From the NCBI GenBank assembly GCA_951406725.2, contig OX597814.1, positions 214,706,001-214,770,000 on the forward strand: a stretch of DNA of 64,000 nucleotides. The letters are read 5' to 3'. The position numbers and the translations under genes were made by a program. The notes under the pieces were generated by a model, which was not told where the DNA came from, did no database searches, and was given only the letters and a program-made list of their open reading frames with translations. Below are positions 31,341 through 52,406 of the stretch, piece after piece (within the stretch, counting starts at the first letter, position 1; the number at the start of each line of letters is the position of its first letter). This DNA is from Octopus vulgaris (taxonomy: Eukaryota).

Positions 31341-31780
31341 ATATTAAATTAGAGACAAAACCACTATTAGGCAAATCAAACAATGAAAGACTTAAGCCAA
31401 TACATATGATTAATTTATATTATTTAAATATGCAACAAAATTATTAAAAAATATAATTAATATCCCACTACGATCGTTTAAACCTCGCCAAGAAAAATAT
31501 TTAAACCACCTGATGAATGACTGCGACTCAAAAATTTGAAGACAGCAGGCAGGAAACGATCGTAGTGGGATATTAATTATATTTTTTTATAATTTTGTTA
31601 CATATTTAAATAATATAAATTAATCATATGTATTGGCTTAAGTCTTTCATTGTTTGATTTGCCTAATAGTGGTTTTGTCTCTAATTTAATATAATATAAT
31701 ATTTTACTATAAAATTGGATTCAATCCTAAATCTGATTTTTCCCTGTAAGTTTGGATTTATTCCTAATATTTATTATTAT
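31341..31780. mobile_element. PLE-like remnant with ~139-bp near-perfect inverted arms
   Basis: 31341-31479 / 31554-31692 inverted; (TA)n on both sides; hammerhead at the junction. Confidence 0.78.
31506..31568 (+). ncRNA. Minimal type I hammerhead ribozyme, intact core
   Basis: CCAC-CUGAUGA-A-UGACUGC...GCAGGCA-G-GAAA-C-GAUC-G-UA-GUGG; palindromic ACGAUCGU; predicted cut after 31564. Confidence 0.87.
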
Positions 31781-31975
31781 ATATATATATATATATATAT
31801 ATGTATGTATGTATGTATATACATACACATATGTGTGTGTAGGTGTATATGTGTGTGTTTTGTGTGTGGGCATGTGTATCTATCAATCTATCTATCTGTC
31901 TCTCTTTCTTATTCTCAGTCTCTGTCTGCCTGCCTGTCATTCTGTCTGTCTGTCTCTCTCTCTGTATATATATAT

Positions 31976-32374
31976 CTCTTTTACTCTTTTACTTGTTTCA
32001 GTCATTTGACTGTGGCCATGCTGGTGCACCGCCTTTAGTCGAGCAAATCGACCCTGGGACTTATTCTTTGTAAGCCTAGTACTTATTCTATCAGTCTCAT
32101 TTGCTGAACCGCTAAGTTACAGGGACATGAACACACCAGTATCGGTTGTCAAGCGATTTGGGGGGGATAAACACAGACACACAAACACACACACATATAT
32201 ATACATATACACGACAGGCTTCTTTCAGTTTCCATCTACCAAATCCACTCACAAGGCTTTGGTCGGCCCGAGGCTATAGTAGAAGACACTTGCCCAAAAT
32301 GCCACGCAGTGGGACTGAACCCGGAACCATGTGGTTGGTAAGCAAGCTACTTACCACACAGCCACTCCTGCACC
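31976..32374 (-). mobile_element. SINE family A, full length
   Basis: Family A reverse complement. Confidence 0.92.
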
Positions 32375-32626
32375 TATATATATATATATATAAGCTTTTG
32401 CTAAAATTATTTGACTGGTGAAATTGTTGAATATGGGGCAAGTTACTTCACTGTATGCATTTTGGGATTTTTGAGGGAAATGCTTTCAGAACACAAAGTA
32501 CAAAAGACAGTTTGATGTGAAACTGTTTAGGACCTTGTCCTTCCTTTCCTTGCATGTCCATGTGCATATAATCCATTTAACTGCATAAATAAATGTGAAT
32601 TTAGATGTGAGAGTTCAAACAGATTT

Positions 32627-33453
32627 AAAAGCATGAAAGAAAAGTTGGACATAAGAAGCATCAGATGTGGTGTGCAAGAGAGATGACTGTGCTGGTATGG
32701 CCATGTGGCGAGAATGGATGTGGATAGCTGTGTGAAAAAGTGCCACACCCCAGTAGTAGAGAGAACCTGTGGAAGAGGCAGACCAAGGAAGAAATTGGAT
32801 GAGGTGGTGAAGCACAACCTTCGAACATTGGGCCTCACAGAGGCAATGACAAGTGACCAAGTCCTTTGGAGATATTTGTGCTTGAGAAGACCTGGCAAGT
32901 CAAGTGAGACGGTAACCGTGGCCTATGCCACTGCAGCATAACTGGCCCATTTAACTGTACCCTTCAATCATTGGACAATAAACTGTGCCTACAAAGACCT
33001 GTTGAGTCAAGTGAAGTCATTGTTGTGGCTGAAGCCAGTACCACCTGACTGGCACCTGTGCCGGTGGCACGTACAAAGCACCATTTGAGTGTGGTTGATG
33101 CCATTGCTGTCTGACTGGTCCTGTGCTGGTGGCATGTAAAAAGCACCATTCGAGTGTGGTCATTGCCAGTTCCACTTGACTGGCTCCCCTGTGTTGGTGA
33201 CATGTAAAAAGCACCATTCAAGTGTGGTTGATGCCAGTACCACCTGACTAGCACTCATGCTGATGGCATGAGAAAAGCACCCACTACACTCTTGGAGTGG
33301 TTGGCATTAAGAAGTGTATCAAGCTGTAGAAACCTTGCCAAATCAGATTAGAGCCTGAAGCAGCCTTCTGGCTTGCTAGTCCTCAGTCAAACCGTCCAAC
33401 CCATGCCAGCATGGAAAGCGGACATTAAATGAGGATGACAACGACGACAATGA
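32627..33453 (+). mobile_element. RTE-clade LINE 3' portion (RT C-terminus, repeat-bearing 3' UTR, tail)
   Basis: WYGHVARM...GRGRPRKK..EVVK motif typical of RTE C-termini, continuous with the UTR units and family B tail. Confidence 0.88.
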
Positions 33454-33454
33454 C

Positions 33455-49099: not shown

Positions 49100-49610
49100 C
49101 TGATTGCCTGGGCTAGCCTGACTACCTCTTGTCATCCCTCTCGATCTTCCATCAGTGTCTTTCGGTCTTTGATTTGGCATCCAACATCATCTGTAAGCTG
49201 TTGTATATATGTCTTCCATGGTCTTCCAGTTGCTGTGGTACCATGATTTGGTACCACAACAACTGGTGGTACCATGATTTGGTGTCCACAGCAACATATT
49301 ACTCACTAGTTCTTTACTTCTCCAGTAGTGGCCAGCAAACCTCAATCTCCACTTTTGGATGGTTGATGAGAAGTTGGTACATTCCCATACAAACATTGTT
49401 TTATTGGGTGCTCCCTCCAAGAGATGCTGAGCACTGCACATAACATTCTGGTGTAGGCACCATCCAGTATGCACCTCTCTTGGTGAGAGTCCAAGTTGGA
49501 GATCCATGTACAAGCTCAAATTCAACAACTGCTCTGAAGAACTATCTCTCCAATTTATCTGGTAGGGTTGTCTTCCATATTGTTCTAAGACCGTCAATAG
49601 CAGTCCAAGG
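49100..49610 (-). pseudogene. RTE/RTEX-like LINE RT C-terminal fragment (second family)
   Basis: WRLRFAGHYWR...LLWTPNHG in ORF 49187-49597. Confidence 0.75.
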
Positions 49611-50440
49611 TAAAAATAGTAAACTAATTCATATATTGTACTATGTTTACTGGTATCACTTATATAGGCATAAACCTATCTCATTCTTATGTGGCTTCTT
49701 TATTTCAAAACCCTAGATCTGTGACACTAGTGTACTACACTCTGACAAAAATATATGTAGATTAGTAGACAAAGCTAAGAAGAATAGAAAAAAATTTAAA
49801 TATATAAAAGCAAAAATAAAGCTATGAAAAATATTGAAAATTTAAAAACAATTAAGAAAGGAAAGTAATCTTTACCTTAGCTTTTTAAGTGTAATTAATT
49901 TCAAGGGAGATGTCTAGTAAAAACCATTCCTTTTCATCTGTATTCGTTTTCTGTCTTTTAACATTTTCCTGGTTTTTAGTAACTTCCTAACTTTTGGTCT
50001 CAGTGAGTAATTTTAGTATTTTCCTTTCCTTGTTTCTTAACATCACATGCTATTGATAAATCTACACCGTATTCCAAACACAAGGCTTTAATCAAATTCT
50101 TTATTTTTATTATGTTTTTTTTTTTTTTTTTTCTTTTTACGATATCGGCAAATTTTGTAACAGAGTTGATATCATGTTTTGTTGTGTTACCACTTCTGAA
50201 CAATTTGCTTCTGGAAAAAAAAAAAAAAAACCCCAGTAATAAAGGAAATATCTGTAGTTGTTAGCAAACAATATTGGTCACTGGTGGTGGTTCCAGAGGC
50301 TGGCCAAAAGTAGTTATGCAAATTAATGACCAACAGATTCAAGTCACTGTCCTTCCAGAACCATTAAAGCTGTCAGACTAGTGAATCCAGGATTGGTGTG
50401 GTTTAATCTGTATTAAAATTAATGTATGTGTATGTATGTA

Positions 50441-50785
50441 TCATCATCATCATCATCATCATCATCGTTTAACGTCCGTTTTCCGTGCTAGCATGGGTTG
50501 GACGGTGCGACCAGGGTCTGGGAAGCCAGGGGCTGCTCCAGGCTCCAGTCTGATCTGGCAGAGTTTCTACGGCTGGATGCCCTTCCTAACGCCAACCACT
50601 CCGCAAGTGTAGTGGGTGCTTTTTACGTGCCACCTGCACAGGTGCCGGGGGGGGGGGGGGGTCCGACATCGGCTACGATTGGTTGTAGCTTTTAACGTGC
50701 CAGTGGAACGGAAGCCAGCCAAGACGGCACTGGCAACGGCCACGTTCGGATGGTGCTTTTTATGTGCCACCGGCACAGAAGCCAG
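50441..50785 (-). mobile_element. RTE-type LINE 3' end (family B)
   Basis: Tail plus UTR units. Confidence 0.88.
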
Positions 50786-51342
50786 TATGTATGTATGTAT
50801 GTATGTATGTCATTATTTAGTTTTACTTCAAGATTTCTTGCCAATAGAGAAAGAATCGGTCACTGACCTAGATCCAAGGCACTTTTATTGGAATTTCAGC
50901 AACATCAGCAATTTTTTGCATGTATGTGTATATATGTGCAGTATTTGGAGTCAGTGCATGTGTAGATTTGTATGTTTTGTTTTATGTATGTATACTCAAG
51001 CATATAATTGTCTGTCTAGACATGCTCTTATATACTTAAATGATGAACTGGAAAGTCTTAGAAACTCTTACAGTTCCAGCAATGTATGTATGTATGTATG
51101 TATGTATGTATGCATGTATGTATGTATGTACGTACGTACGTACATACGTATGTATGTATGTATGTATGTATTTATGCATGTTTGTATGTATGTACATATG
51201 TATGTATGTATGTATGTATGTATGTATGTATGTATGTATGTATGTATGTATGCATGTATGCATGTACGTATGTATACACACACACACACACACACATACA
51301 CACACATACACACTCATACACACACAAGATATATACATACAT

Positions 51343-51915
51343 ACATCACCATCATCATCATCACCGTCACCATTGTTTAATGTCTGTTTTCCATGCTGGC
51401 ATGGGTTGGACGGTTTGACTGAGGTCTTGAGAGCCAGCAGCTGCACCAAGCTCCAATCTGGTCAGGCAACGTTTCTACAGCTGGATGCCCTTTCTAATGC
51501 CAACCACTCCGAGAGTGTATTGGGTGCTTTTTACGTGCCACCGGCATGGGAGTCAGTCAGGAGGACCTGACATCAACAACTTTTGGATGGTGCTTTCTTA
51601 CATGTCACTGGCACGGGTGCCAATCAGGGGACACTGGCATTGCCCACGTTTGGATGATGCATTTTATGAGCCACCGGAATGGGAGCCAGTCAGGGAGCAC
51701 TGGCTGCAGCTATGATTTTGGTTTTACTTGACTCAACAGGTCTTCTCAAGTATATCATATAGCCTGATGCATCAAGGGTACTCTTAAATGGGCCGGACAT
51801 GCAACACTGGCATTGGCCATGGCTATGATCTCACTTTAGTTGGTGGGTCTTCTCAGTCACAGCATATCTCCAAAGGTCTCAGTCTCCTGTCATTGCCTCT
51901 GTGAGGCCCAATGTT
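51343..51915 (-). mobile_element. RTE-type LINE: end of RT, UTR and tail
   Basis: TLGLTEAMTGD at 51879-51915 matches ORF 32705-32941. Confidence 0.85.
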
Positions 51916-52406
51916 ATATTATATATATATATATATATATATATATATATATATATATATAAAATATAAGAAAACAACACACACACACACACACACATAT
52001 ATATATATATATATATATATATATATATATATATATATATATATATATATATTATATTTTTTATTTTATAGAAGGAGCTTCTACATACATATGTCCCCAT
52101 AACTTTAGCAGTTCGGCAAAAGAGACTGACAGAATAAGTACTAAGCTTACGAACAATAAGTTCTGGGGTCAATTTGTTCAACTGAAGGTGGTGCTCCAAC
52201 GTGGCTGCAGTCAAATGACTGAAACAAGTAAAAGGGTATATATTAATTCTTCTACTGTAGGTACAAGGCCTGCAATTTGGGGGCAAGGGGGCTTGTCAAT
52301 TATATTGATCTCAAGTGCTCAACTGGTACTTATTTTATTAACCCTGAAAAACGAAAGTTAACCTTGGCAGAATTTGAACTCAGAATGTGAAGATGAAGGA
52401 GGAGGG

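Follow-up and report, generated by a model that had tools for sequence, protein, structure and literature searches.

What fixes the inner ends of the inverted, ribozyme-bearing repeats in a 64,000-nucleotide (nt) stretch of the Octopus vulgaris genome (contig OX597814.1; this whole stretch is called the window, and window positions are counted along it)? Four stretches within it are pseudo-long-terminal-repeat (pLTR) stubs of three Penelope-like families (here A, B and C), each with a minimal hammerhead ribozyme, and the first-pass annotation had proposed that self-cleaved RNA ends, or template switching at the palindrome of ribozyme stem III, define where such elements start and where inversions form, with breakpoints peaking from 0 to 12 nt upstream of the predicted cut. 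Numbering each arm from the first base 3′ of that cut (+1), we find its inner ends elsewhere: about one third of family A arms start at or just after the cut and were likely copied from self-cut RNA, and family B arms gather at −45, the likely RNA start. We put at roughly 60% the reading that two complementary DNAs (cDNAs) ran off the RNA 5′ end (that is, the transcription start or a self-cut end) and were joined head to head.

Exact genome matches to a tail probe number 1,905 for family A (33-mer) and 3,970 for family B (25-mer). The insertions lie in TA-type microsatellites, and most consist of a tailed and a tail-less arm set head to head, so that the outer ends are fixed; both ends of an insertion lie within TA or CA repeats, which makes any target-site duplication unreadable. 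Sample 1 of family A comprised 92 of the first 93 listed tail arms and their 72 inverted partners, with 153 arms starting between −103 and +118 (starts in the exon 1 zone are approximate in this sample, as some references were cut at their own joins). Sample 2 comprised 100 arms of the window’s subfamily (344 genome matches), including the window copy, and shares six loci with sample 1. The family B sample began with 90 of the 100 listed places, the first in genome order, from which 2 tandem duplicates and 8 false partner matches were removed, leaving 88 tail arms and 57 inverted partners; 21 arms starting upstream of −60 were set aside, and 124 short arms were counted. In both families the partners stop before the tail. 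A score-ranked search with the window’s family A arm was biased towards the same start and was excluded from the counts, and family C was sampled by score only, which affords no breakpoint test.

In family A the excess lies on the downstream side of the cut. In sample 1, 39 arms start at +1 to +12 versus 7 at −12 to −1; in sample 2, 32 start at +1 to +9 versus 3 at −9 to −1 (p = 2e-7), and 1 at +10 to +18, with 21 of the 100 arms starting at −97 to −74 and 12 further upstream. As the +1 to +9 peak comprises 12 tail arms and 20 tail-less arms, it follows position and not cDNA length. The upstream interval, to which the first-pass annotation had assigned the peak, is at background: 11 of 153 arms in sample 1 start at −12 to +1 (9.0 expected, p = 0.29; none at −11) and 5 of 89 in sample 2 at −12 to −1 (7.2 expected), and none of the 124 short arms of family B starts at −12 to +1. 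The proposed upstream peak is thereby refuted in A and B, and the peak at +1 to +9 is found in A and not in B.

The edge of the family A peak was examined genome-wide. Among 907 arms with +1 to +22 intact, 36 are without the native −1 base, and 26 of the 30 that were read are true joins at +1 (two share one flank), the other 4 being mutations; the corresponding controls gave 6 joins at +2 (all 13 arms read; p = 3e-4) and 5 at −1 (all 11 read; p = 1e-4). The first four bases (+1 to +4) have no inverted 4-mer partner, and 17 of 18 joins of +1 ends to a partner are blunt or filled. In 17 of these 18 the partner also starts after the cut (that is, without the ribozyme), as against 38 of 72 overall, and the states of the two arms are coupled (p = 7e-4). 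At one locus (L440:1394-1620), a family A arm that starts at +1 is joined, inside TA repeats, to bases 1 to ~108 of the U1 small nuclear RNA, both having the same sense; such a U1–Penelope chimaeric retrocopy is what a jump from the template end would give.

A second peak of family A starts falls within a 29-nt exon 1. Thirteen promoter-bearing copies were found, 11 of them with a TATA-like box and a splice donor 29 nt past the start, and in ten the acceptor follows ~700 nt on (once 830 nt). Spliced stubs far outnumber intron-bearing copies, and because exon 1 plus exon 2 equals the window sequence, the window stub was copied from spliced RNA. Eleven of the 13 promoter copies keep the intron; in one copy (L011) the promoter is followed directly by the spliced exon junction.

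Family B starts differently. Forty-one of the 124 short arms start exactly at −45 and 77 at −45 to −39, with a further 21 at −33 to −14; position −45 lies 30 nt downstream of a TATA box that is preserved in the long copies. Genome-wide, position −46, a pyrimidine in most parents, is a purine in 2,690 of 5,788 arms reaching −45, and in 15 arms whose extra base is unexplained by promoter, partner overlap or query selection it is G in 9, A in 5 and T in 1. Starts at the cut are rare: 101 of 7,760 arms with +1 to +22 intact are without the native −1 base, and by hand count 17 of 30 read are true joins, 9 of these being stem I microhomology joins. The neighbour tests gave 54 arms at −1 (13 of 30 read are joins) and 206 at +2 (5 of 30). 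About 1 in 100 family B arms thus starts at the cut, akin to the 0.7 per 100 per base at −33 to −14, and events with both arms at +1 (two read, one more inferred) are not above the rate of symmetric joins elsewhere. A competing hairpin across the cut site, with a predicted probability of 0.87 versus 0.13 for stem I, may explain this rarity.

Family B arms also carry single-base losses near the cut. A G is missing at +4 in 16 of 136 arms and at +1 in 8, compared with at most 2 at any other position from −38 onward, and genome-wide 18 of 30 read arms without the G at +1 are single-base losses; in the competing hairpin, both Gs lie in base pairs. The loss hits one arm only in 16 of 16 pairs (for example, L064, L067, L069 and L071), so neither arm is a simple DNA copy of the other, which suggests that the two were synthesized independently. 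At two loci (L266 and L335), family B arms at +1 are joined directly to what appears to be sequence of the element’s own open reading frame (ORF), as a template jump would give.

These patterns can be accommodated in one scheme. The enzyme of the element would nick both target strands and prime two cDNAs at two internal start sites, 70–240 nt from the RNA 5′ end; each cDNA would run off that end, and the two would be joined directly or after trimming to a short homology. Two internal start sites and extension of both strands have been described in vitro for PAc (Poseidon of Anolis carolinensis) in passages of PMC11167929. In family A the hammerhead would probably have cut a sizeable share of the RNA before copying (corresponding to ~1/3 of arms) and would probably have acted in dimers paired via the stem III palindrome, and in family B the competing hairpin, whose predicted fold buries the cut site, would make cutting a rare event. 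We place at even odds the fuller account, in which family A stubs would be a genomic record of germ-line cutting by a Penelope hammerhead, with cut RNA a major template (~1/3 of arms), the family B ribozyme would be largely silenced by its hairpin, and the head-to-head structure of both would stem from two cDNAs, one primed from each target strand, that both run off a single RNA end.

Several observations weigh against this reading, and some of them favour its rivals. Most of the family A peak lies at +5 to +9, not at +1, just before stem I and in an AT-rich palindromic stretch, which is where reverse transcriptase (RT) would halt if it stalled at the 3′ edge of a folded, uncut ribozyme or of a bound protein, so that cleavage would be unneeded. 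Copying does stumble there without stopping in family B (G losses at +4 in 16 and at +1 in 8 of 136 arms), and the main in vitro substrate of PAc in the cited passages is uncut RNA (PMC11167929). We nevertheless judge stalling unlikely, given the excess at exactly +1 over +2 and −1, the coupling of partner arms, the U1 fusion at +1 and a family A stem I of only 4 base pairs that is rarely formed in the fold. This last point cuts both ways, as the stem I fold probability of 0.002–0.023 in the monomer is also low for a ribozyme supposed to cut; in the predicted dimer fold, two copies pair through the stem III palindrome. The peak could also be a sequence effect, if AT-rich microhomologies served either to join cDNA ends or to remove, later and in DNA, the centres of longer palindromes. 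Opportunity is high under the peak (6.5 partners per position), many joins at +6 to +10 are symmetric at short AT palindromes, and symmetric joins occur at other positions too; however, opportunity is equal at +13 to +24 (5.3 partners per position) and at +49 to +60, where joins are few, +1 to +4 lacks partners yet contains the exact +1 class, and solo arms and the U1 fusion also begin at +1. We consider this origin improbable. The sharpness at the single base is itself softened, as 14 of 30 read arms (of 45) without the native −3 base are joins, which may be real −2 starts or chance AT matches to +1 ends, and an incomplete comparison with a second family A subfamily group, lacking the +2 control and the total, did not reproduce it: 3 joins there are without the −1 base and 7 keep it, the partner arm extending into exon 1 or the intron in two of the 7. 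In family B, one subfamily natively has A at −46, and the extra G may derive from a cap, from the partner arm or from stem I snap-back; we rejected it as proof of a cap, which is unproven, and several of the 15 arms above show GG, as snap-back would give. The RNA 5′ ends of both families are moreover deduced from genomic arms.

Two further explanations concern how the inversion itself arises. A single cDNA might form its second arm by fold-back self-priming, as proposed for Penelope elements of Adineta (discussion in PMC3846280); the coupled arm ends, the rare variants common to both arms in some pairs and the ability of stem I snap-back to account for the extra G in family B would fit. Against it, in the 16 pairs with G losses only the tail arm or only the short arm is affected, never the two together, and many joins are strongly asymmetric (for example, −90 with +121), and we regard self-priming as a rather doubtful source of the second arm. 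Far less credible as the maker of ends and inversions is a template switch in the palindrome of stem III, within 0 to −12 nt of the cut, the route the first-pass annotation had offered from window examples at −11 and at −7 or −8. Among the 40 best-scoring copies, 3 show this −11 join, but it uses a 4-nt homology to exon 1 and was query-selected, the example in family C is a local copy, and −12 to −1 is without excess in the unselected samples of A and B. The proposal that self-cleaved ends define element starts is partly supported: it survives for family A with the sign reversed, as a sharp-edged peak from +1 downstream, and fails for family B, in which about 1 in 100 arms starts at +1 and 41 of 124 at −45.

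With the run-off of two cDNAs as the favoured account, the elements of the window can be placed as follows (coordinates, strand, feature).

31341..31479, minus strand: tail-less arm of family A that begins at −11 and runs to about +138, within a TA microsatellite

31476..31760, plus strand: family A tail-bearing arm, starting at −89, with a 4-nt overlap with its partner at 31476–31479

31476..31496, plus strand: 3′ portion of exon 1 (29 nt), which meets exon 2 at 31496/31497 after splicing out of the ~700-nt intron

31506..31568, plus strand: predicted minimal type I hammerhead of family A, with a 4-base-pair stem I and a palindromic stem III, cut after 31564

31703..31760, plus strand: family A tail of ~58 nt, on one arm only

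36376..36467, minus strand: tail-bearing arm of family B with its start at +1, a placement made ambiguous by the 7-nt overlap at 36461–36467

36461..36529, plus strand: family B tail-less arm, starting at −45 (36462) with G at −46, with a predicted hammerhead cut after 36506

45739..45923, minus strand: family C local copy in a CA microsatellite, starting at −7 or −8 and ending near the tail-less end of the family

47480..47806 (outer limits approximate), minus strand: old family C pLTR with a decayed hammerhead, core at 47767–47773

52060..52085 (approximate), minus strand: solo family B fragment without a tail, its start lying between +1 and −4

By motif scan, the window contains two hammerhead cores, that of family A with its predicted cut after 31564 and that of family B with its predicted cut after 36506; Rfam gave no match at gathering score in the window, and three loci gave only microsatellite noise at E up to 1. 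The four breakpoints that the first-pass annotation had measured were accurately placed, two of them in family B. The arm at 31341–31479 does end 11 nt from the cut; its template would have been uncut, spliced RNA, joined through the 4-nt homology to exon 1. In a search with the window arm, 27 of 34 matches to family A partners stop at query position 212–223. The segment 36445–36467, the reverse complement of 36507–36529, ends at +1, where the 3′ cleavage product begins, and is inverted as described; it is part of the main, tailed arm (36376–36467), however, the ribozyme-bearing arm being the tail-less partner, and its end is explained by stem I microhomology. One arm of this insertion (36376–36529) would have reached −45 and then annealed to the other through stem I, making the window copy one of the rare stem I microhomology joins of family B. 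The solo fragment has +1 at 52081, and its 4 further bases match the element and the flanking microsatellite alike, which bears out the reported distance of 0–4 nt and is compatible with a +1 start but uninformative.

The stretch at 45739–45923 ends 7 or 8 nt from the cut, in line with the 6–8 nt first given, and, as it reads past the cut, its template was uncut. It is a 94% copy of 47523–47706, 1.8 kb away, with a 26-mer found genome-wide only at these two places, whereas other family C copies are 75–86% alike; as a local copy of its neighbour it is little informative on the family. Its outer end fits the tail-less end of family C, and it is inserted in a CA repeat; it may be a local retro-hop with 47523–47706 as the likely source. 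The hammerhead of the older element (predicted cut between 47698 and 47697) has a mutated GAAA box in the window copy; its motif is matched in 11 of 30 related loci and the box is intact in 10. Of the four examples, three reach, or may reach, upstream of the cut and need no cleaved RNA.

As to the class of these elements, longer copies of A and B lead into ORFs with what we take to be RT-like and GIY-YIG-like motifs, assigned by eye, separated by a Cys-rich linker. The family B parent has a 492-amino-acid frame in L247 and ORF pieces in L243, upstream of the pLTR; that of family A has a broken ORF upstream of the promoter-bearing copies, and the two ORFs share 45% identity over 170 amino acids. 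They have no Pfam or PDB match above cut-off, and among the 120 listed of 594 ORF homologues none is named Penelope. Core and stems of the hammerhead are present in A, B and C and are preserved across subfamilies that differ in stem II. With a linked RT/GIY-YIG ORF, inverted pLTRs with a one-sided tail and a minimal type I hammerhead, A and B appear to be EN+ Penelope-like elements. A place in the Neptune clade, which is defined by RT phylogeny and by a Zn-finger-like linker between RT and endonuclease, may be considered for A and B, whose linker is Cys-rich. We also considered non-LTR retrozymes and rejected them: A and B are ends of protein-coding elements, mostly inverted pairs or solos, not noncoding tandem repeats.

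Several further features were observed. Separating the end of the ORF from the pLTR promoter, family B parents L243 and L244 carry ~2.3 kb of TG/TA-rich low-complexity 3′ sequence that moves with the element. At one site (L263 and L371, the same insertion), a family B element lies within the TA repeat that adjoins the tail of a family A copy, indicating common targets. Elsewhere in the window, a 184-nt unit occurs in three tandem copies and is also dispersed in both orientations (38999–39554, 54277–54511, 61406–61640 and 29908–30145), and tandem arrays of 61–68-nt units of an abundant dispersed repeat lie at 5851–6315, 12440–12818 and 33024–33281.

These observations bear on two questions, namely whether the hammerheads of Penelope elements cleave in vivo and by what route inverted pLTRs arise. 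Passages of Cervera (2014) describe in vivo evidence for such cutting as absent and those of Frangieh (2024) report no reads at the cut; Craig (2021; passages of PMC8557442) calls the function of the hammerhead unclear, and Arkhipova (2013; passages of PMC3846280) invokes self-priming. From thousands of dated stubs, RNA 5′ ends can be mapped to the base with genomic sequence, and families A (frequent cut-site starts) and B (rare) form a matched pair for bench testing. As elements they belong to a known type: passages of PMC3846280, PMC8557442, PMC2377424, PMC4209133 and bioRxiv 10.64898/2026.07.22.740005 already describe inverted pLTRs, tails, minimal hammerheads and a promoter-proximal intron; the new part is the large class of cut-site starts, which provides indirect support for frequent use of self-cut RNA. 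Full-text literature searches gave no title or abstract mapping Penelope stub ends to a cut or start site, subscription papers and supplements lying outside their scope, and a prior report is possible.

Compared with known systems, A and B resemble the EN+ Penelope-like elements described in passages of PMC3846280 and PMC8557442 in their head-to-head pLTRs with a tail on one arm, microsatellite targets and pLTR hammerhead, and in an RT followed by a Cys-rich linker and a GIY-YIG-like end; in the family A ORF (L492, L493 and L497), RT and endonuclease are further separated by an Asn-rich insert, a feature also described in Penelope elements of Adineta. The tails are longer here (~58 and 68 nt versus 30–40), and inner ends are tied to RNA 5′ ends, a mapping that those passages do not make. 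PAc is alike in having two internal RT start sites that bound the tail and in the cutting and extension of both target strands; its hammerhead is protein-assisted, with cleavage dispensable in vitro, and none of its RNA-sequencing reads began or ended at the cut, whereas many genomic copies of family A begin there (passages of PMC11167929). Penelope of Drosophila virilis, as presented in parts of PMC2377424 and PMC4209133, shares a short exon 1, an intron just past the start that ends shortly before the hammerhead, and a palindromic stem III suited to dimers, but has a TATA-less, internal promoter instead of the upstream TATA-like box of A and B, and an intron of 75 nt instead of the 700 nt of family A. 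The R2 elements with ribozymes resembling those of hepatitis delta virus (HDV) belong to a different ribozyme and element class, yet there too the self-cleavage site correlates with genomic 5′ junctions, varied by chance microhomology (passages of PMC3774820); whereas the R2 cut makes a full-length 5′ end, the cut here lies inside the transcript and would leave promoter-less stubs.

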